64,000 nucleotides of DNA, from assembly GCA_963668695.2 (NCBI GenBank), contig CAXXLQ010000004.1, positions 448,001 to 512,000 on the forward strand, read 5' to 3'. Both the position numbers and the translations under genes were made by a program. This document shows, one piece after another, positions 4,390 to 63,183 of this stretch. The DNA is from Vicinamibacteria bacterium. GTDB lineage: Bacteria > Acidobacteriota > Vicinamibacteria > Marinacidobacterales > Marinacidobacteraceae. Position 1 is the stretch's first letter. Each line of letters opens with the position of its first letter. The notes beneath the pieces are model-generated. The model had not been told where the DNA came from, ran no database searches, and worked only from the letters and a program-made list of their open reading frames with translations.

Positions 4390-4610
4390 CGCGATGCCGA
4401 CTTGGATGGCGGCCCCAGTTCTCCCGCTGGGGACCCTTGCCGGTGGTGCCATCCAGCCCGACAGCGGGCCGCTGTGCCGGCCCCCACCCGGAGAACTGGC
4501 CAGAGGTCGGCCCAGTCCTCCCGGTGGGGGCTCCCTGTCCGGTGCGCCACCCGTTTGAGGCGCGGCGCGCAAGCATCACCCGCCGCGCGGCGGGCGATGC
4601 CGGCCTGATT
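4390..4610. repeat. Cluster of REP-like hairpins carrying three 18-bp units
   Basis: TGCCGGCC..GAGGTCGGC-type palindromes interrupted by 18-mer variants at 4415, 4482 and 4512. Confidence 0.7.
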
Positions 4611-4617
4611 CCTTCCC

Positions 4618-6672
4618 CTACTGGGGTTCGCCCATGTTCACCGGTTCGGCGTCCACCAGCTTGACCGCCCAGAGCCCCGAGGTGTTGTCGGCGAGGAAGA
4701 TGTGGCCCTTGTAGGGCTGCGGTCCCCAGACGAACGGTGCGTTCGGCTTTAGGGTTTCGGGGTCGAACGGGCGGAACATCGCGATCTCGCGGCCCTGCCG
4801 GTAGAGGTCACCTCGCATCTCGCCGGAAATATCCACCACCCGCAGGCCGCCGTTGTAGTAGGCGATGTAGAGGATGTCGTCCTCGACCCACAGGTTGTGG
4901 GTTCCGGCCTCCGGCACCTGGTAGCGCGCCACCTCGCGGGGACTCTCCCACTCGTCCCACTCGAAGATGTGGATCCAGCCGGCCGCCCGGCGCGGGGCCC
5001 GCTCGTCCTCCATCAACTGGTACGGGAACGCCTCGTCGCCCCCGATCATCAGGAACTTGCCGGTGGACTTGCTGCGGTAGGGATAGGCGGCATGGTTCCA
5101 GCCGCTCGGGTAGGGCGTCTTGCCGAGCATCACCGGGTTGTTCGGCGCCCCGCCCTTGCCGCCGCCGCCCACGTCAACCGCAACGACCCCGTCGTTCCAG
5201 TTGGACGAATAGGCGATGCCCTCGTGGACCCACACGTCGTGGATCGAATGCCCGGGGGTGTCCAGCTCGAAGCGCCCCACCCGGTACGGGTTCGTCGGAT
5301 CCTCGGCGTTCAGGATGTCGAAACGCCGGCCCGCCGAGAGTGCGTAGATGTGGTCTTCCGCGATGAAGACATTGTGGACCCCACCGGTGAGCTGGTCGTC
5401 ATAGCGGGCGATCACCTCGATGCCGTTCTGCAGGTCGCTGACGTCGAGGATCACCAGACCGTTCTTCCGGTTCGAGGCGCCTTCCCGGCTGATCACGCAG
5501 AACTTCGCGTCCGCCGAAACCTTCACGTCGTTCACCGTCCGGGCGTCCACCCGAACCGTGTCGATGAGCGAGATCGCCGAGGGATCGGTGACGTCCCAGA
5601 AATAGGCATGGCCGTCGGCGCTGTGGGTCCCGGTCACGGCATAGTCCCGGCCGTCGGTGCCCTCCCAGACCCAGAGGTCCGAGGTGCGGCGATCGCGGAC
5701 CGGGCCCCGTCCCACGACCTCGACGTCCTTCCTCACGTTCCTGGACACGACTGCGACCGTCGCGCTCGCCGAGTCGGTGAACCCGTCCACGATCACCGTA
5801 TGGGTTCCCGACCGCTCCGCCACGAAGGCGCCCTCTTCATCGACCTGGCCGATGGCCCCGGGCGCCACGATCCCATCCGCCGGAATCCCGAAAGTGGCGA
5901 ACTGCACCGGGTAGTCCGGCACCTCGTTCCCGGAGGCGTCCGTGACCTTGGCCTCGAAGAACACCACGTCCCCGGTCCGCACCGCCGCGGCCGGCGCCCC
6001 GCTCAGCGTGATCGAGGCGACCGGGTTCGCGAGCACTTCGATCGTCGCGTCGCTCGAAGCCTCCTCGGCGGATACCGTCAGGGTCGTCCGCCCGGCGCCC
6101 ACCAGGGTGAGCACCCCGAGGGAATCCACGCTCGCCACCGACGGATCGGCGCTGCTCCAGCCCACCCCCACGTCGTTGCGCACGGCGCCCGAGATGTCGG
6201 TGACCACCGGGCGGAGCCCGATCTCGGTCCCCGCGTAGAGGTGGCCGGGAAGATTCGCGACCTCCACCGAAGCCACTGGCGGGTTGGGGATGGTTACCGG
6301 GATCTCCACCATGACCGCGGGCTCGGCGCGGCGATCGATGTCCTCCGGATCCTTGGGCACCATGGCGATCAGGGTGTGCTCGCCGGGCTGGTAGGCCTCG
6401 ACCATACCCGCCGGGTTGACGCCGACCGAACGGCGCCGGCGCGAATAGAACACCACCGTGCGGTCCATCAGGTTGCCGTCGCTGTCCCGGACTGCTGCCT
6501 CGAGCGTCAGCTTGTCCCCGACCTCGAGTTCGAGTTCGGACGGGGTGATGATGAGTTCGGCGGGTTGCGGGCCGGTTTCCGCTTCCTCTTCCTGGGCGAA
6601 CGCGGGGAGGGCGAGGAGGAGAAGCGCGGCGGCGGCAACGGGAATGGCGTGGAAGCGGAGTGTTCGGGTCAT
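4618..6672 (-). CDS. Secreted Ig-like plus LVIVD-repeat protein, paralog 2
   Basis: Highly similar to paralog 1; true start MTRTLRFH at 6672 (the ORF-track extension runs through a MITE). Confidence 0.8.
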   Translation of the reverse strand: MTRTLRFHAIPVAAAALLLLALPAFAQEEEAETGPQPAELIITPSELELEVGDKLTLEAAVRDSDGNLMDRTVVFYSRRRRSVGVNPAGMVEAYQPGEHTLIAMVPKDPEDIDRRAEPAVMVEIPVTIPNPPVASVEVANLPGHLYAGTEIGLRPVVTDISGAVRNDVGVGWSSADPSVASVDSLGVLTLVGAGRTTLTVSAEEASSDATIEVLANPVASITLSGAPAAAVRTGDVVFFEAKVTDASGNEVPDYPVQFATFGIPADGIVAPGAIGQVDEEGAFVAERSGTHTVIVDGFTDSASATVAVVSRNVRKDVEVVGRGPVRDRRTSDLWVWEGTDGRDYAVTGTHSADGHAYFWDVTDPSAISLIDTVRVDARTVNDVKVSADAKFCVISREGASNRKNGLVILDVSDLQNGIEVIARYDDQLTGGVHNVFIAEDHIYALSAGRRFDILNAEDPTNPYRVGRFELDTPGHSIHDVWVHEGIAYSSNWNDGVVAVDVGGGGKGGAPNNPVMLGKTPYPSGWNHAAYPYRSKSTGKFLMIGGDEAFPYQLMEDERAPRRAAGWIHIFEWDEWESPREVARYQVPEAGTHNLWVEDDILYIAYYNGGLRVVDISGEMRGDLYRQGREIAMFRPFDPETLKPNAPFVWGPQPYKGHIFLADNTSGLWAVKLVDAEPVNMGEPQ

Positions 6673-6789
6673 GGTTACGCGGTCCCTCTGTGCACCGGAA
6701 TATACGTCCGCGTGGAAAGGGTCCACTTTCGCGCCGACTTTTCCACACAACCCTGCCGTAGCGGGAAGACCAGGGCGGGAATTCCGTCT

Positions 6790-7407
6790 ATGGGAGTAAC
6801 GGAAGACGCCCCGGTCTTCCGGACGCCGCTTCCGCCCGGAGGAGTCCCGATGCCCCAGCCTGCACCGCAACCACCCGGTCCCGAACCGAAACCGTCCCAG
6901 CCGCCGGTGGACTCGCCGCCCAAGCCGGCGCCAAGGAACGCCCTTTTTCACACGCTGCTGGAAGCCGGCTTCGATCCGCCGATTGCCGAGCAGCCTGTGG
7001 ACAAAGTGACGTGAGCGCCGAGGCCGGCGAGGCGCCCGGCTGACAAGGCGCGCGAGGGAGGAATACCGAGTGTATTCCGACTGAAGCGCAACGATGAGCG
7101 ACGCGCAGCGGCGCGGTTCAGCCGGGATGGATCGCCGGCCGAACGCCGCGTGACTCTGTTCACAGGTTGCTAGACTGCGGAAACGCAGATGAACGCCATG
7201 ACTTCGGAGACCGTCGCCGCACATGTGCAGCCGCTCGTCACGGAGTTGCGGCAGTTGCGCGAAAACATGGTCACGAAAGCGGACTTGGCCGGGTTCGCGA
7301 CCAAAGCGGATCTAGCTGGCCTGGAAACGCGGATGACCAAGTGGATGTTCGGGGCGCTGACGGCTCAGGCGGCGCTCATCATCGCCATCATCAAGCTGTT
7401 GCCCTGA
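6790..7407 (+). pseudogene. DUF1640-like coiled-coil gene interrupted by a MITE; the 3' part (7189-7407) may still be expressed
   Basis: Upstream LFHTLLEAGFDPPIA and downstream TAETQMNAM...VTKADLAGFATKADL...TM helix lie in the same frame on either side of the MITE, with in-frame stops at 7012 and 7171. Confidence 0.6.
6991..7169. mobile_element. MITE family A, empty copy (179 bp)
   Basis: TIRs CAGCCTGTG/CACAGGTTG; shared core GGCTGACAAGGCGCGCGAGGGAGGAATACC. Confidence 0.85.
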
Positions 7408-7449
7408 GGGCCGTCGCCGGAACGGCGGGCACCGTAGGAGCAGCGCAAT

Positions 7450-7625
7450 CGGCGCTGGTTTCGCGCTCCCGCGCGATGCCGGCCGGAGGCCGGCCCAGTT
7501 CTCCCGGTGGGGGCTCCAAGCCGTCCCCGCGCTTCTGCGCGGTTGGCGATGCGCGATCTCGCTGCGCTTTGCGCAGCGGTGCTGGCCAGTTCTCCCGGTG
7601 GGGGCGTGAACACCGGCGTTCCCTC
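7450..7625. repeat. BIME-like unit of REP-like hairpins with two 18-bp units
   Basis: Similar to 57130-57285 and 33958-34030; 18-mers at 7495 and 7586. Confidence 0.7.
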
Positions 7626-7706
7626 TACCGCGCTGCCAAGTGGCTGAGCCGCAGCACGCGGGGATCACCAGCCTGACGGCGGGCGATCCCAGTCTGAGCT
7701 TTTCCC

Positions 7707-9785
7707 CTACTCGGGCTCTCCCATGTTCACCGGTTCGGGGTCCACGAGCTTCACCGCCCAAAGTCCCGAGTTCATGTCGGCCACGAAGATGTGGCCCTTG
7801 TAGGGCTGCGGTCCCCAGACCATCGGCGCGTTCGGGACCCGGCTTTCGGGGTCGAACGGACGGAACATCGCGATCTCGCGGCCCTGCCGGTAGAGGTCGC
7901 CCCGCAGCTCGCCGGAGATGTCCACCACCCGCAGGCCGCCGTTGTAGTAGCCGATATAGAGAACGTCGTCCTCGACCCACAGGTTGTGGGACCCGGCCTC
8001 GGGCACCTGGTAGCGGGCCACCTCGCGGGCGCTGTCCCACTCGTCCCATTCGAAGACGTGGATCCAGCCGGCGGCCCGCCCCGGGGTGCGCTCCTCGCGC
8101 ATGGTCTGGTACGGGAACGCCTCGTCCCCCCCGATCATCAGGAACTTGCCCGTGGACTTGCTCCGGTAGGGATAGGCGGCGTGGTTCCAGCCGCTCGGAT
8201 ACGGGGTGTTCCCCAGCAGCACCGGGTTGTTCGGGGCGCCGCCCTTGCCGCCGCCGCCGACGTCCACCGCCACCACGCCGTCGTTCCAGTTGGACGAATA
8301 GGCGATCCCCTCGTGGACCCACACGTCGTGGATCGAGTGGCCCGGGGTGTCCATCTCGAAACGCCCCACCCGGTAGGGGTTTTCCGGATCCTCGGCGTTC
8401 AGGATGTCGAAGCGCCGGCCCGCGGAGAGGGCGTAGATGTGCTCCTCCGCAATGAAGACGTTGTGGACCCCGCCGGTGAGCTGGTCGTCGTAGCGGGCGA
8501 TGACCTCGATCCCGTTCTGCGGGTCGCTCACGTCCAGGATCACGAGCCCGTTCTTCCGGTTCGAAGCACCCTCCCGGCTGATCACGCAGAACTTCCCGTC
8601 CTCCGAGACCTTCACGTCGTTCACGGTCCGGGCGTCCACCCGCACCATGTCGATGAGGCTGATCGCCGAGGGATCGGTGACGTCCCAGAAGTAGGCGTGC
8701 CCGTCGGCGCTGTGCGTCCCGGTCACGGCGTAGTCCCGGCCGTCAACGCCCTCCCAGACCCACAGATCCGAGGTGCGCCGGTCGCGGACGGGGCCCCGCC
8801 CCACGATCTCGACATCCTTCCGCACCTTCCGCGCCACCACCGCCACCGTCGCGCTTGCCGACTCGGTGAAGCCGTCGGCGATCACGGTGTGGGTGCCCGA
8901 ACGCTCCGCCACGAAGGCGCCCGCCTCGTCCACCTGGCCGATGGCGCCCGGCGCCACGATGCCGTCCGTCGGGACCCCGAAGGTCGCGAACTGCACCGGG
9001 TAATCCGGCACCTCGTTTCCGGAAGCGTCCATCACTCTCGCCTCCAAAAACACCACGTCCCCGGTCCGCACCGCGTCATCCGGCGCCCCGCTGAGGGTGA
9101 TCGAGGCCACCGGGTTGGCGAGCACCTCGATCGCGGCGTCGCTCGACGCCTCCTCGGCGGAGACGGTGAGGGTCGTTCGGCCGGCGCCCATCAGGGTGAG
9201 CACCCCGAGGGAATCCACGCTCGCCACCGACGAATCGGCGGTCGTCCAGCCCACTTCCACGTCGTTCCGGACGGCGCCCGAGATGTCGGTGACCACCGGG
9301 CGGAGCCCGATCTCGGTCCCCGTGTAGAGGTGGCCCGGCATGTTGGCTACCTCGACCGTAGCCACCGGAGGGTTGGGGATGGTTACCGGGATCTCCACCG
9401 TGACCGCGGGCTCGGCGCGCCGGTGGGTGTCCTCCGGATCCTTCGGCACCATGGCGATCAGGACGTGCTCGCCGGGCTGGTAGGCCTCGACCACCCCCGC
9501 GGGGTTCACGCCCACCGACCGGCGGCGGCGCGAGAAGAAGACCACCGCGCGATCCATCGGGTTGCCTTCGCTGTCCCGGACCTCGGATTGGAGCGTCAGC
9601 GAGTCGCCGACCTCGAGCTCGACCTCGGACGGCGTGATGATGAGTTCAGCGGGCTGCGGGCCAACCTCGGTTTCTCCTCCTTCGGCTTCTTCTTCTTCCT
9701 GGGCAAGCGCGAATCCGGGCGCCACCAGAGCACAAAGAAGGACGGCGGACAGCCGCAGCCACGGGTTCGAATTCCTGAGAGTCAT
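7707..9785 (-). CDS. Secreted Ig-like plus LVIVD-repeat protein, paralog 3
   Basis: Signal peptide, RBS GAGGAG upstream, propeller region nearly identical to paralogs 1 and 2. Confidence 0.85.
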   Translation of the reverse strand: MTLRNSNPWLRLSAVLLCALVAPGFALAQEEEEAEGGETEVGPQPAELIITPSEVELEVGDSLTLQSEVRDSEGNPMDRAVVFFSRRRRSVGVNPAGVVEAYQPGEHVLIAMVPKDPEDTHRRAEPAVTVEIPVTIPNPPVATVEVANMPGHLYTGTEIGLRPVVTDISGAVRNDVEVGWTTADSSVASVDSLGVLTLMGAGRTTLTVSAEEASSDAAIEVLANPVASITLSGAPDDAVRTGDVVFLEARVMDASGNEVPDYPVQFATFGVPTDGIVAPGAIGQVDEAGAFVAERSGTHTVIADGFTESASATVAVVARKVRKDVEIVGRGPVRDRRTSDLWVWEGVDGRDYAVTGTHSADGHAYFWDVTDPSAISLIDMVRVDARTVNDVKVSEDGKFCVISREGASNRKNGLVILDVSDPQNGIEVIARYDDQLTGGVHNVFIAEEHIYALSAGRRFDILNAEDPENPYRVGRFEMDTPGHSIHDVWVHEGIAYSSNWNDGVVAVDVGGGGKGGAPNNPVLLGNTPYPSGWNHAAYPYRSKSTGKFLMIGGDEAFPYQTMREERTPGRAAGWIHVFEWDEWDSAREVARYQVPEAGSHNLWVEDDVLYIGYYNGGLRVVDISGELRGDLYRQGREIAMFRPFDPESRVPNAPMVWGPQPYKGHIFVADMNSGLWAVKLVDPEPVNMGEPE

Positions 9786-9811
9786 TGTTTCCTCTCCTCC
9801 TCAGCGAGACC

Positions 9812-13017: not shown

Positions 13018-13094
13018 GGCCGTAGGGGATCCTCCTGCTGCTGCCCCGATGGGCAACAGGCGATTGTAGTCGCCTGCGCCGCGCGGCTCCCAAA

Positions 13095-13180
13095 ACCGGC
13101 ATGTTGAGGGGAGCGCCGAGCTCCGATCGGCGCCGCGTCCCGCAGGTGAGGGAACGCCGGCCTTCAGACCGGCACCGCCC
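13095..13180. repeat. REP-like hairpins without the 18-bp unit
   Basis: GGAGCGCCGAGCTCCGATCGGC and GGAACGCCGGCCTTCAGACCGGCA. Confidence 0.6.
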
Positions 13181-13306
13181 CCGCAGGGGGCGAAACTCCC
13201 ATCGCTGCTCCCCGCAGAACTACTGAACGGCGGAACCGACCCGGGTCTACGCGACCCTCGCTCCGCCCTCGACCCGCACATATGGCGGGGCGACCTGGTT
13301 ACCGCT

Positions 13307-15349: not shown

Positions 15350-15547
15350 CAGCCTGTGGCAAAACCCACGCGGCGTTCGACCGGCGATGCATCCCGGCTG
15401 AACCGCGCCGCTTCGCGGCGCTCTGCGTTGCGTTTCGGTCGAAATACACCGGGTATTCCTCCCTCACGCGCCTTGTCAGCCGGGCGCCTCGCCCCCACCG
15501 GGAGAACTGGCCAGCCTCGGCGCTCACGTGGGTTTCACCACAGGCTG
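15350..15547. mobile_element. MITE family A, one inserted unit (198 bp), inverted orientation
   Basis: TIRs CAGCCTGTGG/CCACAGGCTG, flanks ATAA/TTAA, 18-mer at 15493. Confidence 0.85.
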
Positions 15548-15551
15548 TTAA

Positions 15552-15772
15552 CAGCCTGTGGTGAAACCCGGAAGGCATCCATTCGCGGCGCGCAGCGCCG
15601 CGGGGGTGGGGTGTGGGGAGGGGTTTCCCCTCCCCACGAAAGACGATGGTGCGAATCGCGCAGCGATTCGCACCATCAACCCGTGGGGAAAGCGCCCCGC
15701 ACGCACACAAACCGACGGATTCGCCGCGCGCGACCTCCTGGGGCTCGTGCGGGGTGCTTTCACCACGGGCTG
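15552..15772. mobile_element. MITE family B (same termini, different interior)
   Basis: TTAA-CAGCCTGTGGTGAAA...TTTCACCACGGGCTG-TTAA; internal hairpin GTGGGGAGGGG/CCCCTCCCCAC. Confidence 0.8.
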
Positions 15773-15822
15773 TTAACGGTGGGTTTTCTGCGGCTCGATG
15801 CCAGCACCATCAAAGTAGCCTC

Positions 15823-16875: not shown

Positions 16876-16887
16876 TTTCTTCTCCCT

Positions 16888-18582: not shown

Positions 18583-18593
18583 TTCGGCAGGCG

Positions 18594-24494: not shown

Positions 24495-24835
24495 ACCTTG
24501 ATCGTGGCTCGGTTGTCCTGGTGGACCTTGATCCCACGCTGGGACATGAACAGCGCGGAGTCCGGCGCTGTGTCCTGGTGAGTGATGCCGAGGTGGTGGC
24601 CGAAGCGCGCTTCCCCCTGGTCGCCGTGGTGCCCGTTTCTCGAAGGGCTGGCGAGGGCGCCCTCTACCCGTTGCTCCGCCCGGGCGCCAGCGGTCTCCTC
24701 CAGGTGTCCTGGGCGTTGACGGACCAGGTGCGATCTGTGGACAAGCGACGCATTCGCCGGCTCTTCGGAAAAGTCTCCCCCGACGAGATTCGGGCCATTG
24801 ACGAGGGTCTGCAACTGTTCCTCGGGCTCTACTAG
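24491..24835 (+). CDS. PemK/MazF-family toxin
   Basis: RGSVVLVDLDPTLGHEQRGVRRC, DQVRSVDKRRI; its stop TAG coincides with the MITE target CTAG. Confidence 0.9.
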   Translation: MNLDRGSVVLVDLDPTLGHEQRGVRRCVLVSDAEVVAEARFPLVAVVPVSRRAGEGALYPLLRPGASGLLQVSWALTDQVRSVDKRRIRRLFGKVSPDEIRAIDEGLQLFLGLY

Positions 24836-25069
24836 CAGCCTGTGGTGAAACCCGGGTGAGCGCCGAGGCCGGCCAGTTCTCCCGGTGGGGGCGAGGCGCC
24901 CGGCTGACAAGGCGCGTGAGGGAGGAGCCCCCACCGGGAGAACTGGCCCGGGTGTATTTCGACCGAAACGCAACGAAGAGCGGAGCGAAGCGGAGTGGTT
25001 CAGCCGGGATGGATCGCCGGCCGAGCCCCCACCGGGAGAACTGGGCCGCGTGGGTTTCACCACCGGCTG
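24836..25069. mobile_element. MITE family A with three inserted units (234 bp)
   Basis: TIRs; left flank CTAG; 18-mers at 24873, 24929 and 25027. Confidence 0.85.
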
Positions 25070-25226
25070 CTGAAGCCGACCTCGGCCTCCCCACGGCTTG
25101 GCCGCATACACAGCCGGGCATCGCCCAGCGAAGGCCGCGTAATGTCGTGTCCGCGACCATCTTGGGATCCACCTTTGGATTCTGACTCGCTCTGGAAGAG
25201 AATCCTGGGGACGGCATATTTGCCTC

Positions 25227-29559: not shown

Positions 29560-29756
29560 CAGCCTGTGGACAAAGTCACATGGCGTTCGGCGCGCGATCC
29601 ATCCCGGCGGAACCGCCCCCCCACCGGGAGAACTGGCGCTTCGCACCGCTCGGCGTTGCGCTTCGGTCGAAATACGCCCGGTATTCCTCCCTCGCGCGCC
29701 TTGTCCGCCTGGCGCCTCCCGCGCCTCGGCGCTCACGCGACTTTGTCCACAGACTA
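29560..29756. mobile_element. MITE family A with one inserted unit (197 bp), inverted orientation
   Basis: CAGCCTGTGGACAAAGTC/GACTTTGTCCACAGACTA termini; 18-mer at 29619. Confidence 0.85.
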
Positions 29757-33879: not shown

Positions 33880-34105
33880 GCTGTGCCGGTCTGGAGGCCC
33901 CCACCGGGAGGACTGGCCGGCGTTCCCTCCCGGCGGCACCACGGGGATGTTGAGCAGTGCGCAGTCTCGCTGCGCTTCGCGCAGCGGTGCCGGCCCCCGC
34001 CGGGAGAACTGGCCAGAGGTTGGCGTTCCCCGGCCTGAATCCCGCAAGGGCAGACAGCAACGCGCCGTTCCGCGGCCCTGCGGGCCGCGGGTGCCGACCG
34101 GAGGT
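33880..34105. repeat. REP-like hairpin cluster with two 18-bp units; the last hairpin is the IS110 target
   Basis: TGCCGGTCTGGAGG[unit]CCGGCGTTCCC, TGCCGG[unit]CCAGAGGTTGGCGTTCCC, TGCCGACCGGAGGTC. Confidence 0.75.
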
Positions 34106-34119
34106 CTATACCCTTCGGA

Positions 34120-34335
34120 CTTCGTTTTCTGGGCCCTCCGGTGTGAGAGGCACCGAAGGGCCCTACTTCACCAACCTGTTAGCCGATCCGCCGGGAGCAA
34201 CCAACCGGAGGCATGTGTTTCGAACACCTACGCCGGACTGTGCCTCGACGGATCTTGGCCGTGATGGAACGCACGGTAGAAGGGCAGCGCCATCGAGCAG
34301 CCAGTATAGGCCCCAGCGAACATCACGGCGGCTGA
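34120..34335 (+). ncRNA. Predicted IS110 bridge RNA (ends approximate)
   Basis: Two stem-bounded internal loops with segments matching the target (34204-34211, 34230-34238) and the donor junction (34275-34283, 34304-34311). Confidence 0.8.
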
Positions 34336-34374
34336 CTTCCCTCGGGGGGCTTCCCTCGGAAGGACAACAGCGCC

Positions 34375-35622
34375 ATGACATCTCCTTTTCTGTTTTTCGT
34401 CGGCATCGATTGGGGCTCGACGACCCACCATGGATGCCTGCTGGAGGCGAACGGTTCGGTTCGCGGCAGCCGGGCCTTTCCCCACGGCGGCGCGGGCCAG
34501 GCGGAGCTCGTCCGCTGGCTCCTGGACGAGACCGGGGCCGCCCCCGGGCAGCTCGCGGTCGCCATCGAGACGCCCCACGGGCCGGTCGTCGAGGGCTTGC
34601 TGGTCGCCGGCTTTGCGGTGTTCGCCATCGGTCCCGCCCAGATCCGCGGCTCCCGGCGCCGCTACGTCTCCTCCGGGGCGAAGGACGACCCCCGCGATGC
34701 CTGGATGCTCGCTCGCGCCCTCCGCGCCGACCCCGACCTCTTCCGACGGGTCGAACTCGAGAAGCCTCTCGTCCTCCAACTGCGCGAACGCACCCGGACC
34801 ATCAACGAACTCACCTGCCAGCGCACCCGGCTCTGCCACCAGATCCGCCAGCAGCTCTGGCGCTACTACCCCCAACTGCTCGCGATCCCCGACCTCCTCA
34901 ATCAACTCACCCACCCCTGGTTCCGAGAGCTCTGGAACAAGGCCAAAACCCCCGCACTCGCCCTCAAGCTGCGCGTCTCCACCCTCGCCAAACTCCTCAA
35001 AAAGCACGGCATCCGGCGACTGAACGCCAAAGGCCTGTGGGAGATCCTGCACGCCCCCGCGCTCACCGTCGCCCCCGGAGCCGCCGAGGCCGCCTGCCGC
35101 GCCCTCCAAAGCCTCTTCGCCCAGGCACACACCACCAACCAACTCCTCGCCCAGGCACGAGAAGACGTCCGTGAACTGCTGAAGGCCTTCTCCCAGGCCC
35201 ACCCCGACGACGAACGACCCGACGACATGACCCTCCTCCGCTCCCTCCCCGGTGTCGGGGGCTACGTCCTCAGCACCTTGTTCGCCGAAGCCTTCGACCT
35301 CTTCCAACGCCGCGACTACCCCGCCCTCCGCGCCCGCTCCGGAGTCGCCCCCGTCAGCATCCAGTCCGGCAATACCCGCTGGGAGATCCGCCGCCTCGCC
35401 GTCCAGCACGAACTCCGCAACGCTCTCTACCACTGGGCCCGCGTCGCCGCCGTCCACGATCCCCTCAGCAAAGCCCGCTACCGCGCCCTCCGCGCCCGCG
35501 GCCACTCCCACGGACGCGCCCTCCGCACCGTCGGCGACCGGCTCCTCGCCGTCGCCTGCGCCATGCTCAAAAACGGAACCCTCTACGACCCGAAGCTCTC
35601 CCGAGACAAGCTCGCCGCCTGA
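34375..35622 (+). CDS. IS110-family DEDD recombinase/transposase
   Basis: FVGIDWG, AIE, KDDPRDA, SLPGVG, GVAPVSIQSG. Confidence 0.95.
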   Translation: MTSPFLFFVGIDWGSTTHHGCLLEANGSVRGSRAFPHGGAGQAELVRWLLDETGAAPGQLAVAIETPHGPVVEGLLVAGFAVFAIGPAQIRGSRRRYVSSGAKDDPRDAWMLARALRADPDLFRRVELEKPLVLQLRERTRTINELTCQRTRLCHQIRQQLWRYYPQLLAIPDLLNQLTHPWFRELWNKAKTPALALKLRVSTLAKLLKKHGIRRLNAKGLWEILHAPALTVAPGAAEAACRALQSLFAQAHTTNQLLAQAREDVRELLKAFSQAHPDDERPDDMTLLRSLPGVGGYVLSTLFAEAFDLFQRRDYPALRARSGVAPVSIQSGNTRWEIRRLAVQHELRNALYHWARVAAVHDPLSKARYRALRARGHSHGRALRTVGDRLLAVACAMLKNGTLYDPKLSRDKLAA

Positions 35623-35941
35623 GCAACTCCTCCAAAGAAAAAAGGATCTTCAAGGTGAGCCGGTGGGAAGTGTGGGAAACGCGCCCCTCTCCGCCGCGGC
35701 CGGCGAACAACCGCCGCCGTGGTGCCGCGTTTTCCAAGTCCTGGGGAAATCGCTTCCCGCCCCGCCGGCCCCCGAAGCCCAAACCCACCTCCCATCCCGA
35801 TTTCCCCGGGACGGCACTTTCCACCGGATACCGAGCACCCGCCCGCAGCCCTCCTTCCCCCTTGACAAAAAGGTAGAAGGTCCGGCGTTCCCTGACCTTC
35901 GCGCCACGGTGCCGGCTGGAGGCGGGCGGTCCCTTGCCCCC

Positions 35942-37713: not shown

Positions 37714-37892
37714 CAGTTCGTGGATAGAGTGACGTGAGCACCGAGATCGGCGAGGCGCCTGGCTGACAAGGCGCGCGAGGGAGGAATACCCGGTGTATTT
37801 CGACCGACGCGCAACGATGAGCGACGCGAAGCGGTGCTGTTCAGCCAGGATGCATCGCCGGTCGAATGCCGCGTGACTCTGTTCACGGGCTG
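37714..37892. mobile_element. MITE family A, empty copy (179 bp) between ftsA and ftsZ
   Basis: Degenerate TIRs, conserved core. Confidence 0.85.
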
Positions 37893-43674: not shown

Positions 43675-45266
43675 CGCCGGCCCCCTTGGGCGCCTTCCAG
43701 GCGCGCGACCAGCGCGCGGAATCGGGTGCCCCGGTCCGCGTAGTTTTCGAAAAGGTCGAAGCTGGAGCAGCCGGGGGAAAGAAGGACGATCCCGCCAGGG
43801 CGGGAACGCGCGAAGGCGGCCGCCACGGCTCCGTCGAGGGTGCCCTGGACCTCCACCGGCACGCTGCTGATTTCGGTTGCGATCCGGGCCTTCGTCCGCC
43901 CGATCGCCTGGATCCCCTCCACCCGGCCGAGCGACCCCTCCAGATCGGAAAACCGGCCGCCCTTGAGGATCCCTCCCAGAATGAGCTGGATCCCGCCGCC
44001 CGCCGTTCCGGAAAGCGCATCGAGGGCCGCCCGGGTCGCCTGCAGGTTCGTCGCCCGGGAGTCGTTGATGAACCGGACCCCCGCCACCGAGCCCGCTTCC
44101 TCGAGGGCGTGGGGCAGGCCCGAAAAACGGGCCGCCGCCGTTTCGATGGCGTCCCGGCGAACCCCAAGCACACTGGCGGCCGCGGCCGCGGCCGCCAGGT
44201 TCTTCTGCTGGTGGCGGCCTGGGAGCCGGAGCGCGGACAGCCGGGCGAGGACCCGCGTTTCTTCTCCGTCCCGCCGGAGGACACTTTCGGAATCCAGGAG
44301 GACTTCCGGATCGTGCGCGCCGGCCGGCCCGGCGAACGGCAGCCAGCGCGCGCTGCTCGCCCGGATGCCGGCGGTCGCGAGATCGTGAGCCACGGGGTCA
44401 CCGCCGTCGCAGACGACCCAGTCGATGGCCGTCTGGTTCTCCAGGAGCCGGGCCTTGGACCGGCGGTAGTCGGCGAGATCCGGGTGCCAGTCGAGATGGT
44501 CCTGACCCACCTCCAGCAGCACGGCGACGTGCGCCCGGAAGCGGGCGATCGTCGCCAACTGGAAACTCGAGGTCTCGACCACCGCGATCTGATCGGGGCC
44601 GAACGATCCAGCGAGCGCGGTAAGGGGTTCGCCGAGGTTCCCGCAGGCCCTGACCGGGGTCCCCTGCGCCTCGAGCGCTTCCGCAAGCAGAGTCACCACG
44701 CTGGACTTTCCCTTGGTCCCCGTCACGGCCACCAGCCGGTCCCAGGGTTCGCCCAGCGCTCGGTATCCCAGCTCGAGTTCGCCCCAGACCGGGATTCCCT
44801 CGCGCTTTGCCGCTCTCAGGATGTCCGCCCGCGGCGGGACTCCGGGGCTCGTCACCACGAGCGCCATCCCGGCCAGCAAAGACGGGGGATGGCCCCCGAA
44901 GTGAACGCGCGCTCCCAGCGACCGGAGCGCGGAGGCCGCCGGAATGGCGGGCTCCGGTCGGGAGTCCGCAACCAGCACCCGCCGCCCGATACTGCAGAGA
45001 TAGCGCGCCGCCGCCTGGCCGCTCGCGCCGGCGCCGAGCACCAGTACGTCCGGCCCCGGGACAGGGTCTGCACAGCCTGTGGACAAAGTGGCGTGAGCGC
45101 CGAGAGCGGTGAGGCGCCCGGCTGACGAGGCGCGCGAGGGAGGAATACCGGGTGTATTTCGACCGAAGCGCAACGACGAGCCACGCGAAGCGAGGCGTTT
45201 CAGACGGGATGGATCGCCGCTCGAACGCCGCGTCGCCTTGTGCACAGGCTGTGTTAGTGCCGTCAT
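43671..45266 (-). CDS. murD: MurD ligase with an in-frame MITE in its N-terminus
   Basis: VLGAGASG, VTGTKGKS, ETSSFQL, DHLDWH, NDSRATN, LLSPGCSSFD. Confidence 0.92.
   Translation of the reverse strand: MTALTQPVHKATRRSSGDPSRLKRLASRGSSLRFGRNTPGIPPSRASSAGRLTALGAHATLSTGCADPVPGPDVLVLGAGASGQAAARYLCSIGRRVLVADSRPEPAIPAASALRSLGARVHFGGHPPSLLAGMALVVTSPGVPPRADILRAAKREGIPVWGELELGYRALGEPWDRLVAVTGTKGKSSVVTLLAEALEAQGTPVRACGNLGEPLTALAGSFGPDQIAVVETSSFQLATIARFRAHVAVLLEVGQDHLDWHPDLADYRRSKARLLENQTAIDWVVCDGGDPVAHDLATAGIRASSARWLPFAGPAGAHDPEVLLDSESVLRRDGEETRVLARLSALRLPGRHQQKNLAAAAAAASVLGVRRDAIETAAARFSGLPHALEEAGSVAGVRFINDSRATNLQATRAALDALSGTAGGGIQLILGGILKGGRFSDLEGSLGRVEGIQAIGRTKARIATEISSVPVEVQGTLDGAVAAAFARSRPGGIVLLSPGCSSFDLFENYADRGTRFRALVARLEGAQGGRR
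45073..45251. mobile_element. MITE family A, empty copy (179 bp), inside the murD reading frame
   Basis: TIRs CACAGCCTGTG/CACAGGCTGTG; ORF continuous from ATG 45266 through the element. Confidence 0.88.
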
Positions 45267-53034: not shown

Positions 53035-53149
53035 CTCAGGCTGGGTCCAAAAGGAGGGACCCACCCGGAACGCCGGAAGCGGGAAACGGACCGGCGCCGG
53101 ACGGGGAGCGGAGGGAAGCTGAGAGAGCATGCCGGCCGGAACCCAGGAG

Positions 53150-53590: not shown

Positions 53591-53687
53591 GAGGTCTGAA
53601 GGGGCTTGGTGAGGTCTGCGGTTGCCTGCCCGCCCACTCCAGGACCTGAGTCTGGATTTAATCGTAGAATGAGAGGGAAAGGTTCTG

Positions 53688-53725
53688 TATTTTTACCACT
53701 TCTAGCCACAATTTTCCACCACAAG
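53688..53725 (-). promoter_or_regulatory. dcw promoter region with MraZ-box-like GTGG repeats
   Basis: Minus strand TGTGGTGGAAAATTGTGGCTAGAAGTGGTAAAAT: GTGG at 10-nt spacing in an AT-rich patch. Confidence 0.6.
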
Positions 53726-53754
53726 AACCGTACTCGCCCCCGGTGACCGCCTAG

Positions 53755-53933
53755 CAGCCTGTGGTGAAACCCACGTGAGCGCCGAGGCCGGTGAGGCGCC
53801 CGGCTGACAAGGCGCGTGAGGGAGGAATACCCGGTGTATTTCGACCGAAACGCAACGCCGAACGCAGCGAAGCGGAGTGGTTCAGCCGGGATGGATCGCC
53901 GGTCGAACGCCACGTGGGTTTTGCCACCGGCTG
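53755..53933. mobile_element. MITE family A, empty reference copy (179 bp) with CTAG duplication
   Basis: CTAG-CAGCCTGTGGTG...GCCACCGGCTG-CTAG. Confidence 0.9.
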
Positions 53934-53944
53934 CTAGCCCCACA

Positions 53945-54205
53945 AGGGCCGGCCCGTTCTCCCGTTGGGGGCCGCCACCGCGGCCCGGAGGTCGGAAACG
54001 CCGACCGGTTCTCGCGGTAGCGGCCTTCAGACCGGCACCGGCAGCCCGGAGGTGAGGAACGCCGGGCAGTCCTCCCGGTGGGGCCCTTCAGACCCCCACC
54101 GGGAGAACTGGCCGGCACCGCGGCCGCAGGCCGCGAAACTCCCATCGCCAACCGCGAAAAAGCGCGGGGACGGCTGGAAGCGCCGACCTCTGGTCGGCAC
54201 TGCGG
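53945..54205. repeat. REP-like hairpin cluster with three 18-bp units or variants
   Basis: GGCCTTCAGACCGGCA empty at about 54022 and filled at 54058-54118; GCGCCGACCTCTGGTCGGCA. Confidence 0.7.
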
Positions 54206-54317
54206 CAGGCTACGATGCTCAGCACTTGGTCCCCGCCGGACTCGCCGAAAGGCCCCGGCGGGGTTATTCGTGTCCGACCGCGCTTGGCCTCAAGCGCGCT
54301 GTTTCGTTCGCCGGCCC

Positions 54318-55382: not shown

Positions 55383-55611
55383 GAGGCGGTGATGGTAGCC
55401 GTGCGGACCCGGGACGTCGGCAAGCGACAGCTCCGGGGAACCATCGGCATGAGCCTTGCTTGCGCATCGTGGCGTACGCGTCGGGACTGAAAGAGCCCGG
55501 TGGCCGCCAGTGCTGCGGGCCCTCGAAGGCGCGCGCCCAAGGAAGAGACGAAAAGACCGTGACGGGCGGTTGCGGGGCGTCCACCGGTCGCGCGACTGGC
55601 AGGAGACGGAA

Positions 55612-57018: not shown

Positions 57019-57129
57019 ACCCGCCGCTCATGGCCTCCACCGGGAGAAACGCCCATGATCGGGTCCGCCTGCACGCCGCGCCAGTCATGAAAAAAGCGCG
57101 GCCCTCGCCTTGGCAGGGCGCAACGTCAT

Positions 57130-57285
57130 CGGCGCCGGTTTCGCGCTCCCGCGCGATGCCGGCCGGAGGCCAGCGTTCCAAGTCGTCCCCGCGTTCCTTC
57201 TCGTTCGGCAGTACGCGGTTTCGCGGCCCGGTGGGCCGCGATGCCGGCCAGTTCTCCCGGTGGGGGCGTGAACACCGGCGTTCCC
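57130..57285. repeat. BIME-like REP unit with one 18-bp unit
   Basis: Aligns with 7450-7625; the first hairpin is empty here but filled at 7495. Confidence 0.7.
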
Positions 57286-57289
57286 CGCC

Positions 57290-59199
57290 TCAGAGATCCA
57301 GCGCGGCCGGGTCGGGGGCGCCGTCACGGATGAGCAGTCGGCGCTCGGCGGGGTCCTTGCCCATCAGCTTGACGATGAAGGCGTCCGCGGTTTTTCGGTC
57401 GGGGATTTCCACCCGGAGGAGACTCCGGGTCTCGGGGTTCAGCGTCGTGTCCCACAGCACCTTGGGCTGCATCTCCCCGAGACCCTTGAAGCGGGTGATC
57501 GTCGGGTTCTTCGCGCCCGCGTTCCGGAGGATGACTTCCTTGTCCGCCTCGTCCCGGGCCCAGTGGGTCGTGCTCCCGATATCAACCCGGTAGAGCGGCG
57601 GCTGCGCGACAAAGATCCGTTCCGCTTCGAGCAGCTTCCACATGAACTTGACGAAGTAGGCGAGCAGCAGGGTCGTGATGTGGTTCCCGTCGGCATCGGC
57701 GTCGGCGAGCAGCACCACCCTCCGGTAGCGAAGCTTTTCGGGGTCGCAGTCGTCGCCGGTCCCGCAACCCAGCGCGAGCGCGATGTCCCTCAGCTCGGCG
57801 TTGTCGGCAACCTTCGCCCGGGTAGCCTGCGCGGCGTTCAGGATCTTGCCCCGGAGAGGGAGCACGGCCTGGCGCATGCGGTCCCGCCCCTGTTTCGCGG
57901 ACCCTCCGGCGGAGTCTCCTTCGACGATGAATATCTCGGTCTCCTCGGCATTCCTCAGGGCGCAGTCGCTCAGTTTGCCCGGCAGGACGCTGCGGGTCCT
58001 GGTTTCGGCCTTTCGGGAGACCGCCGCCGATGCGGCGCGCGACGCCTCGCGGGCCCGGGCGGCGAGCACCACCCGGTTCGCGATCCGCTCCGCCGCGGTG
58101 GGCGACTGATTGAGCCAGCGCTCGAGTTCGAGGCGCACGGCGGCGTCGACCGGCGCCCGCACCTCGGGGTTGTTCAGCCGATCCTTCGTCTGACCCTGGA
58201 ACTGAGGGTTCGGCAGGAACATGCTGAGGATCGCGAGCACCCCCTCCCGTACGTCTTCGGCCGCGATGGTCAGGCCCCGCGGGATCAGGGAATGGGTCTC
58301 GAGGTAGTTCCGGACGGCCTTGGAGAGTCCGTCGCGGAGACCCGTTTCGTGGGACCCGCCGGACCCCGTCGGGATCCCGTTGACGTAACTGCGGAACTCC
58401 TCGCGCGGAGCCTCGGTCCAGCCGAGCACCAGTTCCAGGCGGCCTTCGCCGTCGAGCGGATCCCGCGAAAGCTCGAACGCCGCCTCGTGGGCCAGGGTCA
58501 GCTTCCGGTCCCGGACCACGGCGTCGAAGTAGTCGGGCAGGCCGCGCGCCTGCTTCCAGTCGTGCGCTTCCCCGGACGCTTCGTCCGAGAAGGTCAGTTG
58601 AAGACCCCGGTGGAGGTAGCTGGTCTCGCGCATCCGGGCGGCGATCCGCTTTCCGTCGAGCTTCGGGTCCGGAAAGATCTCGGGATCGGGCAGAAAGGCG
58701 ATCTCCGTGCCGGTGCCCTTGCCCGAGCCGGTCTCCTTCAGTTTCCCGAGGGGCTTGCCGCGCCGGAAACGCATTTCCCACTGCCGGCGGTGGCGCCGCA
58801 CCTTCGCCGTAAGCGAACAGCTCAGCGCGTTCACCACCGAGGCCCCGACGCCGTGCAGGCCGCCGGAAGCGTGGTACGCCCCCCGATCGAACTTCCCGCC
58901 CGCGTGGAGCGTCGTGAGGATCACCTCGATGGCGGGCTTCCCGGAGGGTTTGTGGACATCCACCGGGATCCCGCGGCCGTTGTCCGTGACACAAAGCTCG
59001 CCGCTCTTCTTGAGGGTCACATCAATCCGGGACGCGTGCCCATTCATGGCTTCGTCCACGCTGTTGTCCAGGATTTCCCACACCAGGTGGTGGAGTCCCT
59101 CGACGTCCGTTCCCCCGATGTACATCGCCGGGCGCTTCCTCACCGGCGCGAGACCCTCGAGGACGGTGATGTCGCGGGCGGTGTAGTCGTCCCGGGGGC

Positions 59200-59203
<4 letters not shown>
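57290..59203 (-). CDS. parE: Type II topoisomerase subunit B (ParE-like)
   Basis: [48 protein letters not shown]; no large GyrB insertion. Confidence 0.8.
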
Positions 59204-61551
<2,348 letters not shown>

Positions 61552-61558
61552 GGGTTAA

Positions 61559-61809
61559 CAGCCTGTGGTGGAACCCGGGTGAGCGCCGAGCCCGGTGAGG
61601 CCCAGTTCTCCCGGTGGGGCCAGTTCTCCCGGTGGGGGCCCGGCTGACAAGGCGCGTGAGGGAGGAATACCGGGTGTATTTCGACCGAAACGCAACGAAG
61701 AACGCCAGTTCTCCCGGTGGGGGGGCGAAGCGGAGTGGTTCAGCCGGGATGGATCGCCGGGCGAGCCCCCACCGGGAGAACTGGGCCGCCTGGGTTTCAC
61801 CACAGGTTG
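61559..61809. mobile_element. MITE family A with four inserted units (251 bp), TTAA duplication
   Basis: 18-mers at 61602, 61620 (tandem), 61705 and 61767. Confidence 0.88.
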
Positions 61810-61813
61810 TTAA

Positions 61814-62046
61814 CAGCCTGAGGACGGAGTGACGTGAGCGCCGAGGCCAGTGAGGTGCCCGGCTGACAAGGCGCGCGCGAGAGGAGCCCCCACCGGGAGA
61901 ACTGGGCCGAGTGTATTTCGAGCGAGGCGCAACGATGAGCGCCGCGAAGCGGCGCGGCCAGTTCTCCCGGTGGGGGCCAGCCGGAGTACATCGCTGGCCG
62001 AGCCCCCACCGGGAGAACTGGGCCGCGTCACTCTGTTCTCCGGCTG
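61814..62046. mobile_element. MITE family A with three inserted units (233 bp), in tandem with the previous copy
   Basis: Shares TTAA 61810-61813; 18-mers at 61888, 61958 and 62004. Confidence 0.85.
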
Positions 62047-62088
62047 TTGGCGGTTTACCGGGCAGCGGCCGGCGCCGGAGCGGAGAGA

Positions 62089-62469
62089 ATGAACGCCGTG
62101 CTCAGCGGCCGGCATCAGGGATTTGCGCTCCTCGCGCTGTCGGCGATCAGCCTGGGCGTCTCCGTTCTGCTCCGGGAGCTGGCCGGAGACGTCACCCTCT
62201 GCGGCGTCAAGGCCCTGTCGGGGCTGCCCTGTCCGTTCTGCGGCGGTGTCCGCGCCACGGCGGCGCTCGGACGCGGCGCACTCGTGGAGGCGTTCGGCTG
62301 GAATCCGGCGCTCACCCTGCTCCACGCCGGGATGGTCATTAGCGGAGCGGCGCTGGTCCTGGGAGTGACGCCGCCGTGGTTCGCTCCCGACCGCCAGCGG
62401 TTCGTGTTCCGCGCCGCGATCGCCATCCTGCTGGTGAACTGGGTCTATCTGGTGGTAGCGGGCCGCTGA
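62089..62469 (+). CDS. DUF2752-like membrane protein
   Basis: C....GLPCPFCGGVRA...NP motif with TM helices. Confidence 0.8.
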   Translation: MNAVLSGRHQGFALLALSAISLGVSVLLRELAGDVTLCGVKALSGLPCPFCGGVRATAALGRGALVEAFGWNPALTLLHAGMVISGAALVLGVTPPWFAPDRQRFVFRAAIAILLVNWVYLVVAGR

Positions 62470-62505
62470 AGGCCTCCGGCGGGTGGATGCCGGGGCGGGC
62501 CGGAC

Positions 62506-63183
62506 TCACCCGGCGGCTTCGACATATACCCGCACCTTCAGACGCGTCGCTCCACGCGAGCCGTTGGACCGGATGGTGAGCCAGCGCTCCAGCACGCCCC
62601 GGTAACGCCGGGTTTCGAGGGTCACCCTGAGTGTCGCCGCCTCCCCCGGAGGGATCACCATGCGGTCGGTCACCGCCGCCGCGCACGCGCATGCCGAGGC
62701 GATGCGGCCGATCTCCAGATCCCGCTGTCCGGTGTTCTTCAGAGCGAACTCGCGAACGAGCACCTCACCGGGGGCCGCCCGCCCGAAGTCCCACTCCCCG
62801 GGCTCGATCTCGAGGCGCGGCCCCCGCTGAAGGGCGTTCCCGGAAGCCGCCGCGAAACCTCCGAAGAGCGCCGCGGCGAGAAGGCAAGCCAGCGCTAGCA
62901 GCCCGTGGTGGAACTCGCGTGAGCGCCGAGAGCGGTGAGGCCCAGTTCTCCCGGTGGGGCCAGTCCTCCCGGTGGGGGCCCGGCTGACAAGGCGCGCGAG
63001 GGAGGAGCCCCCACCGGGAGAACTGGCCCGAGTGTATTTCGACCGAAGCGCAACGCAGAGCGCCGCAAAGCGCCAGTTCTCCCGGTGGGGGGGCGGTTCA
63101 GACGGGATGCATCGCCGCTCGAGCCCCCACCGGGAGAACTGGGCCGCGTGAGTTTCACCACGGGCTGGTCGACTTCGTTTCAA
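62506..63183 (-). CDS. DUF1573-domain secreted protein with an in-frame MITE in its signal peptide
   Basis: WDFG, FALKNTG..L.I..IASACAC, IPPGE; TTG start with AGGAGG RBS. Confidence 0.7.
   Translation of the reverse strand: MKRSRPARGETHAAQFSRWGLERRCIPSEPPPHRENWRFAALCVALRSKYTRASSPGGGSSLARLVSRAPTGRTGPTGRTGPHRSRRSREFHHGLLALACLLAAALFGGFAAASGNALQRGPRLEIEPGEWDFGRAAPGEVLVREFALKNTGQRDLEIGRIASACACAAAVTDRMVIPPGEAATLRVTLETRRYRGVLERWLTIRSNGSRGATRLKVRVYVEAAG
62899..63167. mobile_element. MITE family A with five inserted units (269 bp)
   Basis: TIRs CAGCCCGTGGTG/CACCACGGGCTG; 18-mers at 62942, 62960, 63009, 63073 and 63125. Confidence 0.88.

Follow-up and report, generated by a model that had tools for sequence, protein, structure and literature searches.

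How does an 18-bp sequence come to stand, with the same ends each time and in both orientations, at 28 places in one 64,000-nt stretch of bacterial DNA? The stretch in question, referred to here as the window (C4:448001-512000), belongs to a Vicinamibacteria genome designated G000, the assembly of which comprises 4.10 Mb in 4 contigs at 67.5% G+C. A first-pass annotation of the window had listed 28 starts of this 18-mer unit and described it as a micro-insertion repeatedly written into miniature inverted-repeat transposable elements (MITEs) and repetitive extragenic palindrome (REP) hairpins. In a pattern search allowing at most two mismatches, all 28 starts were matched at their exact positions, with 20 of the matches being exact, 6 containing one mismatch and 2 containing two mismatches; 15 lie on the + strand and 13 on the - strand. 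When 100 dinucleotide-preserving shuffles of the window were searched, no 18-mer matches were obtained. Across G000, 1,631 units with at most two mismatches were found, including 1,288 exact copies, with the two strands being equally represented. As detailed below, comparison of these copies with one another and with those in a sister species (G004) and in other genera of the same family (G018, G019, and G020) showed them to be true and recurrent insertions.

Recurrent insertion of the unit and the rule at its junctions

Pairs of empty and filled sites reveal the copies to be insertions. As the first-pass annotation had proposed, alignments of MITE copies from the window differ by exactly the 18-mer, by 36 bp when two units lie in tandem and by 19 bp at one site, and filled and empty pairs were likewise found in a second, unrelated family of REP-like hairpins. 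For 355 of 1,630 units, the exact empty form exists elsewhere in G000. Orthologous loci were next compared in syntenic alignments with G004 (~431 kb aligned; 88% mean identity overall, 90-94% in long blocks), revealing 20 sites at which the two genomes differ by precisely a single unit or a tandem pair, with the additional copy being found in G000 in 12 cases and in G004 in 8. Among alignable units, 15 of the 59 in G000 have no counterpart in G004, while 11 of the 62 in G004 have none in G000. These differences include several units of the window, namely, the T5C variant at 4512..4529 (+), where G004 presents GT in place of the GC that follows the site; the unit at 7495..7512 (+), lying in a REP-like unit and again showing GC where G004 shows GT; the two tandem units at 61602..61637 (+), at MITE site 43, both absent (-36) from the orthologous MITE; the unit at 61705..61722 (+), at a minor MITE site (~position 110); and that at 61767..61784 (-), at MITE site 154, where G004 reads GAAC and G000 reads GAGC.

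Insertion was also seen within a gene. At C4:394434, outside the window, the unit lies in frame in a gene encoding an RND transporter, adding six residues to the product. This insertion is absent from the G004 orthologue, as well as from a G004 paralogue. The six additional residues of the efflux transporter fall in a loop after a conserved transmembrane segment in both haplotigs (see below). As read from the sequence, none of the six frames of the unit contains a stop codon. The earlier remark that the unit is not found in ordinary coding sequence is thus true of the window but not of the genome, where 2 of the 1,631 units, corresponding to one locus on two haplotigs, passed a strict test for coding DNA that called, on each side of the unit, for an open frame of 240 nt or more rich in third-position G+C. 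In other genera, different sites were found to be occupied. G020 contains at least 43 MITE matches, mostly of ~181 bp (the empty length), and a single unit, while the units of G019 lie at MITE positions ~41 and 138, facing each other in the hairpin. When the sequences flanking the G000 units were clustered at different thresholds, 99, 140 or 213 contexts were distinguished. Descent of all copies from one event is therefore contradicted by the ~100-200 flank contexts, the gains in both directions relative to G004, the sites used in other genera and the coding insertion.

A rule was seen to hold at the junctions of the unit. At every independent site for which the empty form is known, a clean 5' junction is seen, 18 bp are gained on balance and the unit is followed by GC irrespective of the bases present in the empty form, with two MITE sites being tabulated as departures from this pattern, namely, site 36/37, where one base is replaced and the net gain is 19 bp, and site 120, where two bases are changed to GG. 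At MITE site 154, read on the MITE strand, empty copies show GAAC and filled copies GAGC (100% and 98% diagnostic), while at MITE site 74, AT is changed to GC (98-100% diagnostic) and one base is changed on the other side. GT is replaced by GC at two REP-like sites, GA and AT are replaced by GC at two G019 sites and the flanks of the single filled copy in G020 are converted likewise. In the RND-transporter gene, a valine codon is replaced, with two bases being exchanged for the unit plus GC. In sum, the dinucleotides replaced at the independent sites examined were GT, AT, GA or CA, all of which were changed to GC. Genome-wide, 1,479 units have no further unit immediately after them, and in 1,217 of these the next two bases are GC; among all copies, G is found at position -2 in 92% and G or C at position -1, with position +1 being G in 86% and position +2 being C in 88%.

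Given this pattern, what enters the target is in effect a cassette of 20 nt, made up of the 18-mer and GC, in exchange for 2 nt. The insertion of an 18-bp unit, as originally described, is accordingly real, although it is not a clean gain of 18 nt. Replacement of the GC of a first unit by a new cassette entering at GGGG^GC explains the tandem pairs, and the same rule explains the nested arrays of G018 (locus L126), in which an older unit is interrupted, immediately after its internal CCGG, by a unit plus GC. No GC scar was seen at empty MITE sites, nor was any sign of excision, making copy-and-paste likelier than cut-and-paste.

The alignments also confirmed that either orientation of the unit is used, that its hosts include at least two repeat families unrelated to each other and that it has neither terminal inverted repeats nor target duplications. 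As had been stated earlier, it is not palindromic, with no self-complementarity being detected; a single unit with its flanks (23 nt) was predicted to fold at -2.7 kcal/mol (z = 0.59), and 143 of 200 shuffled sequences folded at least as well. By far the commonest variant, T5C, is present in 156 copies and 20 distinct contexts, while the next commonest variants are found in 26 and 19 copies, respectively. The spread of T5C suggests that copies, or else two master templates, serve as donors.

The unit is widely distributed in the genus. Of 41 genomes searched (including that of the window), 21 contain exact copies. All 15 other genomes of the genus carry between 5 and 631 exact copies, although low counts in assemblies of many contigs may reflect no more than unassembled repeats, and exact copies are also present in four other genera of the family. 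None was found in the 16 genomes from two sister families that were searched, nor did a reversed-pattern control yield a match in any genome. Database records holding the motif are labelled Candidatus Marinacidobacterium, Vicinamibacteria, and Acidobacteria, and correspond to metagenome-assembled genomes with different record prefixes. Four unrelated taxa gave one match each, which by rough estimate is about what chance would yield in 596 Gb. Similarly, one viral contig contains a single match in an unrelated context, such that a link to phage was rejected and the match taken to reflect chance. All or part of the region at window positions 3600-8400 was detected in public runs from 9 studies, some labelled as sponge metagenomes, and short-read contigs of two public runs present the three units at 4415-4529 with 0 differences. 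Contigs of four runs showed no 18-bp indel at the units of the window, although contigs, while documenting presence, cannot reveal rare empty alleles, expression or the ends of transcripts. Because the motif is found in contigs assembled from independent short reads and in metagenome-assembled genomes of varied prefix, it is neither a library adapter nor the artefact of a single assembly.

Host repeats and the passive spread of copies

The main host of the unit is a MITE of ~181 bp with terminal inverted repeats, present in ~650 copies in G000 and predicted to fold into a long hairpin (z = -5.0). When units were cut from a working copy of the genome and the MITE copies were then aligned, 1,297 of the 1,631 units (~80%) were seen to lie inside MITE matches, at a few fixed positions, each with a fixed orientation. 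Filled copies numbered 215 at position 36/37 (+), 233 at position 43 (+), with 139 of these containing a tandem pair, 306 at position 74 (-), 63 at position 120 (+) and 285 at position 154 (-). Fewer were found at positions 34 (-; 12 copies), 110 (+; 3 copies), 126 (+; 9 copies) and 138 (-; 3 copies). These sites adjoin small loops of the predicted fold, a fold that has many loops. The remaining 334 units lie mostly in families of REP-like hairpins with the flank consensus CGCCGG^GCC. Recurring spacings between units on the same strand are 18 bp (151 direct tandem pairs), 25, 71 and 98 bp, while inverted pairs recur at 49, 56 and 52 bp. In G018, loci L125 and L126 contain tandem arrays with periods of 44 and 92 bp and one unit per period; these are not CRISPR-like, given that the intervening sequence is identical in each period.

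Within the window, an empty reference copy of the MITE (181 bp) is found at 53755..53935 (+), with further empty copies, as delimited by BLAST matches, at 6991..7142, 37727..37865 and 45072..45224 (all +). The MITE is flanked by CTAG or TTAA-like tetranucleotides (53755-53935 and flanks; 61800-61815), and its copies often abut head to tail. The copy at 24833..25075 (+) contains three units, at 24873..24890 (+; site 36/37, where the gain is 19 bp), 24929..24946 (-; site 74) and 25027..25044 (-; site 154). Two adjacent copies at 61554..62050 (+) contain four and three units; the first holds those missing from G004, and the second those at 61888..61905 (-; site 74), 61958..61975 (+; site 120) and 62004..62021 (-; site 154), with the latter two being able to form a stem of ~23 bp. 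Five units are found in the copy at 62896..63170 (+), namely, a tandem pair at 62942..62977 (+; site 43), the second member of which is the T5C variant, and single units at 63009..63026 (-; site 74), 63073..63090 (+; site 120) and 63125..63142 (-; site 154). Two MITE copies in reverse orientation (15377-15552 and 29594-29755) contain the units at 15493..15510 (-) and 29619..29636 (-), respectively.

The REP-like units of the window are similarly occupied. In a cluster of REP-like hairpins, a unit with one mismatch is found at 4415..4432 (+), while another, at 4482..4499 (-; one mismatch), pairs with that at 4512 in a hairpin. A further copy lies at 7586..7603 (+). The cluster to the left of an insertion sequence (IS) of the IS110 family, considered below, includes a T5C variant at 33899..33916 (-) and a unit with one mismatch at 33995..34012 (-). 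A decayed unit with two mismatches is found at 53953..53970 (+). The copy at 54066..54083 (+), also with two mismatches, shares its REP-like unit with a unit that follows 10 nt later in the opposite orientation, at 54094..54111 (-). Finally, the REP-like unit containing the copy at 57248..57265 (+) has an empty first site (~57170).

Most of the G000 copies were nonetheless shown to have spread passively, by MITE amplification and by recombination or gene conversion. Of 435 near-full-length MITE copies, 109 are free of units, nearly all combinations of the five main sites occur and associations between sites are weak to moderate. Two contigs of the assembly allow copies of the same region to be compared. 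C1 (144 kb) is a haplotig of C4:304184-421223, with ~99.3-99.9% identity in long aligned blocks, and C3 (31 kb) is a haplotig of C4:3505137-3538141; overall, identity of C1 and C3 to the main contig is 97.6-99.9%. Because both duplicate parts of the main contig, they account for the 9% 'contamination' estimated for this assembly, and they offer strain-level variation within it. Between haplotigs at 99.5% identity, differences in units coincide with clusters of single-nucleotide polymorphisms (SNPs) and with MITE rearrangements, and one such difference corresponds to a deletion between units at sites 74 and 154. This coincidence indicates that gene conversion and recombination between units reshuffle MITE copies, which, together with transposition of the MITE, leads to the near-random association of sites. 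As such, differences in fill inside repeats cannot be counted one-for-one as insertions. The first-pass description of the unit as repeatedly written thus stands in that insertion is recurrent, but the number of events was overstated, with 1,297 of 1,631 units lying in one MITE at about five fixed sites. As a rough figure, primary insertion events number ~100-200; to count ~1,600 separate writing events would be wrong.

Possible sources of the inserting activity

Considered together, these results indicate that the 18-mer is probably a very small non-autonomous copy-and-paste element, with ~100-200 primary insertions, the bulk of the copies having been amplified secondarily. A trans-acting activity would insert the 20-nt cassette in place of 2 nt, using both orientations and leaving no target duplication, with its targets being G/C-rich positions preceded on the 5' side by GG or GC, nearly all of them in hairpin-forming non-coding repeats. 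Those primary insertions would create the distinct sites, after which transposition of the ~181-bp MITE would multiply the units lying in it, with gene conversion and inter-unit recombination redistributing them over its ~650 copies. A new cassette would readily enter at the 3' end of an existing unit (GGGG^GC), itself a good target, yielding the many tandem pairs, while inverted pairs form perfect stems of 19-23 bp. We infer that the process is of the copy-and-paste type, that it involves a dedicated enzyme and that hairpin DNA is preferred rather than tolerated. The deposition of a fixed oligonucleotide in trans, as the first-pass annotation had imagined, is compatible with the data, although unproven.

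Several results weigh against this account. Only a single insertion was found in unique sequence, and the estimate of independent events relies on arbitrary clustering thresholds. Inside repeats, de novo insertion cannot be distinguished from short-tract gene conversion, as linked changes in the flanks fit both. No reverse transcriptase (RT; PF00078), Y1 transposase or RAYT (PF01797), or TnpB was detected above cut-off in G000, although the genome is estimated to be 91.7% complete, such that a missing gene is possible. The orientation of units shows no replichore bias and so offers no hint of a single-strand mechanism. Lastly, the ends of the three groups of IS110 elements examined do not match the unit, a result that also led to rejection of the idea of an IS-excision footprint.

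The search for an enzyme was extended to related genomes. PF01797 gave no match in G004, G018 or G019, and a RAYT-like protein of G001 used as query gave no match in G000 or in these three genomes. RT genes were found in 4 of 28 genomes of the family, with none in G000, G004, G008, G018 or G019. The absence of RT and Y1 genes from G000 counts against RNA-templated synthesis and against the footprint of an HUH nuclease, both of which had been put forward earlier. Elsewhere in the genus, 13 of 15 genomes gave one or two matches to a RAYT-like Y1 gene, the exceptions being G004 and G015; six RAYT-like loci (one each in G001, G009, G010 and G014 and two in G008; considered among L162-L170) contain no exact unit within ~1.3 kb of flanking sequence. 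The notion of a larger element with split ends was discarded, given that 10-mers from the left and right of the unit occur outside full units 23-26 and 103-125 times, respectively, which by rough estimate is close to chance. Among known RNA families, only a tRNA was identified in the window.

The most far-reaching interpretation would assign the insertions to a dedicated 'oligonucleotide writer', that is, a trans-acting enzyme that places a 20-nt cassette with exact ends while removing 2 nt, being neither a conventional RT nor a RAYT. Such an enzyme, which we consider rather unlikely, might be an RNA-guided recombinase acting on tiny single-stranded donors or might perform nick-primed, template-directed synthesis.

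To a comparable, minor degree of probability, no dedicated machinery would be needed, with template switching or microhomology-mediated repair copying the unit from its very abundant existing copies to comparable G/C-rich positions, within repeats prone to hairpins at which replication forks stall, and gene conversion then spreading it. Such an origin agrees with the location of sites in strongly folding repeats, with the short GG/GC and CCGG motifs shared by donor and target flanks, with the co-conversion of bases beside the unit, reminiscent of a templated patch, with the resemblance of haplotig differences to conversion tracts and with the arrival of variant units in new contexts. Template switching should, however, give rise to variable lengths and donor-specific flanks, whereas the ends of the unit are nucleotide-exact at every independent site (+18, and +19 once). 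Moreover, the replaced GT, AT, GA and CA share no consistent microhomology with GC, and MITEs from different genera share only 77-82% identity, while the unit itself shows 100% identity among those genera.

The remark that no candidate enzyme is visible in the window holds for RT and RAYT but overlooked a gene encoding an IS110-family recombinase. This open reading frame (34375..35622, +; 415 aa, with DEDD_Tnp_IS110 and Transposase_20 domains) belongs to an IS of ~1.77 kb inserted in a REP-like unit (34125..35891, +). Thirteen copies of this window-type IS were examined, one from G000, five from G004 and seven from G008 (the loci beyond the window being L131, L132 and L138-L147). The right junction in the REP-like unit is common to all 13 copies and the left junction to 12, with L145 differing. 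The IS entered this REP-like unit 3 nt from the entry point of the 18-mer, and its flank shows the empty form in every case. The IS is present as a single intact copy in G000, in 5-6 copies in G004 and in 7 in G008, with the copies in G000 and at L131 lacking ~350 bp of left end found in the others. The left non-coding end of the IS contains words identical to the left half of the target and to the right end of the IS itself, together with the complement of the right half of the target; judging from sequence, this is the pattern expected of putative bridge-RNA guides.

A second group of IS110 elements, sharing 42-44% protein identity with the first, inserts inside the 18-mer unit. It splits the unit after CCCC (in the minus reading), with CC being repeated at both junctions. 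Such was the case for nine of ten copies examined in G014 and G009 (loci L133, L134, and L148-L155), while the tenth lies in a related 12-nt partial site. The two IS110 lineages thus specialise on the empty and the filled allele, respectively, of one REP-like unit. That an IS lineage has adapted to target the unit further implies that the latter is old enough for such adaptation to have occurred. Targeting of the unit by IS110 elements parallels the targeting of REP elements by IS621, described in passages of the IS621 report (PMC11208160).

The unit could accordingly be a minimal derivative of an IS110 (bridge-RNA) element, namely, a donor recognition sequence moved in trans, perhaps as a small single-stranded circle, although this we consider doubtful. 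No recombinases other than those of IS110-family elements could be linked here to recognition of these sequences, with 13 of 13 right junctions of the first group lying 3 nt away from where the 18-mer enters and 9 of 10 copies of the second group lying inside the unit. Passages of the IS621 report state that a 22-bp donor suffices for IS621 (PMC11208160), and a 2026 preprint (10.64898/2026.08.31.748434) reports that IS621 releases a single-stranded circle by copy-and-paste, with insertion relying on donor-only recognition being possible. Furthermore, genomes of 1-4 contigs with IS110 homologues hold 6-1,288 units, whereas those without hold 0-36, although these genomes are related and hence non-independent. 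On the other hand, to be a target of IS110 elements does not imply being moved by their enzymes. At the sequence level, none of the three IS110 groups has ends like those of the unit and no duplicated core dinucleotide is apparent; with a 5' flank of GG, GC or CG, a 3' GC and a net gain of 18 bp, it would appear that no core fits. The use of both orientations and of varied targets (99-213 contexts, with MITE site 34 (-) lying beside site 36/37 (+)) likewise argues against this origin, as do the 36 units of G019, in which no IS110 homologue was detected at E <= 1e-10, and the situation in G000, which has the most units but a single intact IS110 gene.

Equally doubtful is the proposal that the unit is a functional module kept by selection, serving as a protein or RNA binding site or as a building block of hairpins such as terminators or mRNA stabilisers. 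At least five genera share its exact sequence, inverted pairs give rise to perfect stems of 19-23 bp and, according to crude gene calls, islands of units are found in 111 of 336 spacers between convergent genes, as compared to 66 of 336 spacers between divergent genes. In addition, one contig from an RNA library spans two units, although this is no proof of transcription. By contrast, 259 of the 601 islands in G000 comprise a single, unpaired unit, decayed copies exist and copy number ranges from ~5 to 1,288 within one genus, as is typical of selfish spread, even if this range partly reflects poor assembly of repeats from short reads. Function would, moreover, leave insertion unexplained.

Finally, while 80% of units do lie at five fixed sites of one MITE family, derivation of all copies from one or a few ancestral MITE insertions through transposition alone, like an adapter or assembly artefact, is highly improbable, given that all combinations of sites occur, that orthologous MITE copies differ in fill in both directions, that units are found in unrelated REP-like families, in a coding gene and at other sites in other genera, and that the motif recurs in contigs of independent runs (9 studies) and in metagenome-assembled genomes of different prefixes.

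Known short repeats and minor observations

The behaviour of the unit resembles that of the cyanobacterial small dispersed repeats (SDRs), which offer its closest known analogue. SDR1-8 of the Nostocaceae, reportedly described by Elhai et al. in 2008 (Genome Res 18:1484) as 'very small mobile repeated elements', are of 21-27 nt. To our knowledge, no enzyme has been ascribed to SDRs, nor has a mechanism been offered since 2008, and they represent the only comparable case of which we are aware. Both SDRs and the unit are very short, highly repeated and non-palindromic, were recognised as insertions by comparison of genomes or copies, are often nested in repeats or hairpins and are confined to one family-level lineage. 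Indeed, the empty and filled pairs reveal a non-coding unit of ~20 nt inserting into repeats and hairpins, as SDRs are defined. The unit differs in belonging to the Acidobacteriota (Vicinamibacteria-type), in being unrelated in sequence and in being shorter (18/20 nt). Its defined junction rule, its presence mostly as a passenger of one MITE and its use as an IS110 target may further set it apart from SDRs. Passages of one report (PMC5861425) assign to SDR5 a preferred short target, HIP1, and those of a paper citing the SDR work restrict SDRs to the Nostocaceae.

Other known repeats resemble the unit less closely, and the earlier view that it is not a REP, a CRISPR repeat or a conventional MITE was borne out when the defining features of each were considered. 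REP sequences and REPINs, which passages of Bertels and Rainey, 2011 (PMC3116915) describe as being mobilised by RAYT, are likewise short, very abundant and extragenic, form hairpins from inverted pairs and, according to passages of the IS621 report (PMC11208160), serve as IS110 targets. The unit, however, is no palindrome, it is inserted as a single 18-mer or direct tandem rather than as an inverted doublet and RAYT is absent from G000, G004, G018, and G019. With MITEs and Rickettsia palindromic elements, the unit shares being non-autonomous and the ability to sit in frame in coding genes. Those elements, however, are of at least 100 bp, contain inverted repeats or palindromes and, in the case of MITEs, are usually associated with target duplications, features that the unit lacks. 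As such, classification of the unit as a MITE was rejected, with no terminal inverted repeats being visible, no duplication being found and 2 nt at the 3' side being replaced by GC. The dRS3 repeats and Neisseria intergenic mosaic elements (NIMEs) of Neisseria resemble the unit in their size of ~20 bp, in numbering hundreds of copies, in delimiting mosaic segments between genes and in being sites at which mobile elements integrate; dRS3, however, has terminal inverted symmetry, and we know of no evidence for its insertion as a unit into other repeats or genes. A CRISPR repeat was rejected on the basis of the spacings of 18, 25, 49, 56, 71 and 98 bp being set by the repeated MITE and the intervening sequence being itself repeated (cas genes were not searched for), and a DNA uptake sequence (DUS/USS), which would arise through point mutation, spread through uptake bias and be frequent within genes, on the basis of the 18-bp indel and the single coding locus (2 of 1,631 units).

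Known mobile DNA usually requires its own enzyme-encoding gene or ends of tens of bp, such that 18-20 nt lies at the lower limit of known mechanisms. The unit, nonetheless, inserts with exact ends, in both orientations, at more than 100 sites, including one gene. If it is indeed a second SDR-like case, the unit would be a useful one, presenting a clear junction signature, related genomes sequenced with long reads and co-resident IS110 elements that read the same sequence, which together render the question of mechanism testable. Should an 'oligonucleotide writer' exist, no mobile element smaller than the unit would be known for which the chemistry of insertion is defined, and the same activity may also explain SDRs. 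The unit also creates long perfect hairpins and portable homology, reshaping hundreds of intergenic regions, and provides a natural target site for bridge-RNA recombinases. A literature search for 'Marinacidobacterium' returned no paper.

A degenerate copy had been noted near 57035. A partial match of 12 nt does exist, at 57037-57048, but represents a different kind of site. It lies 5 nt upstream of an ATG, with a Shine-Dalgarno-like GGGAG being found ~8 nt before that ATG; the same GGGAG word appears in the minus reading of the 18-mer. One IS110 copy in G014 (L150) inserted off target, at a sequence near-identical to 57037-57048.

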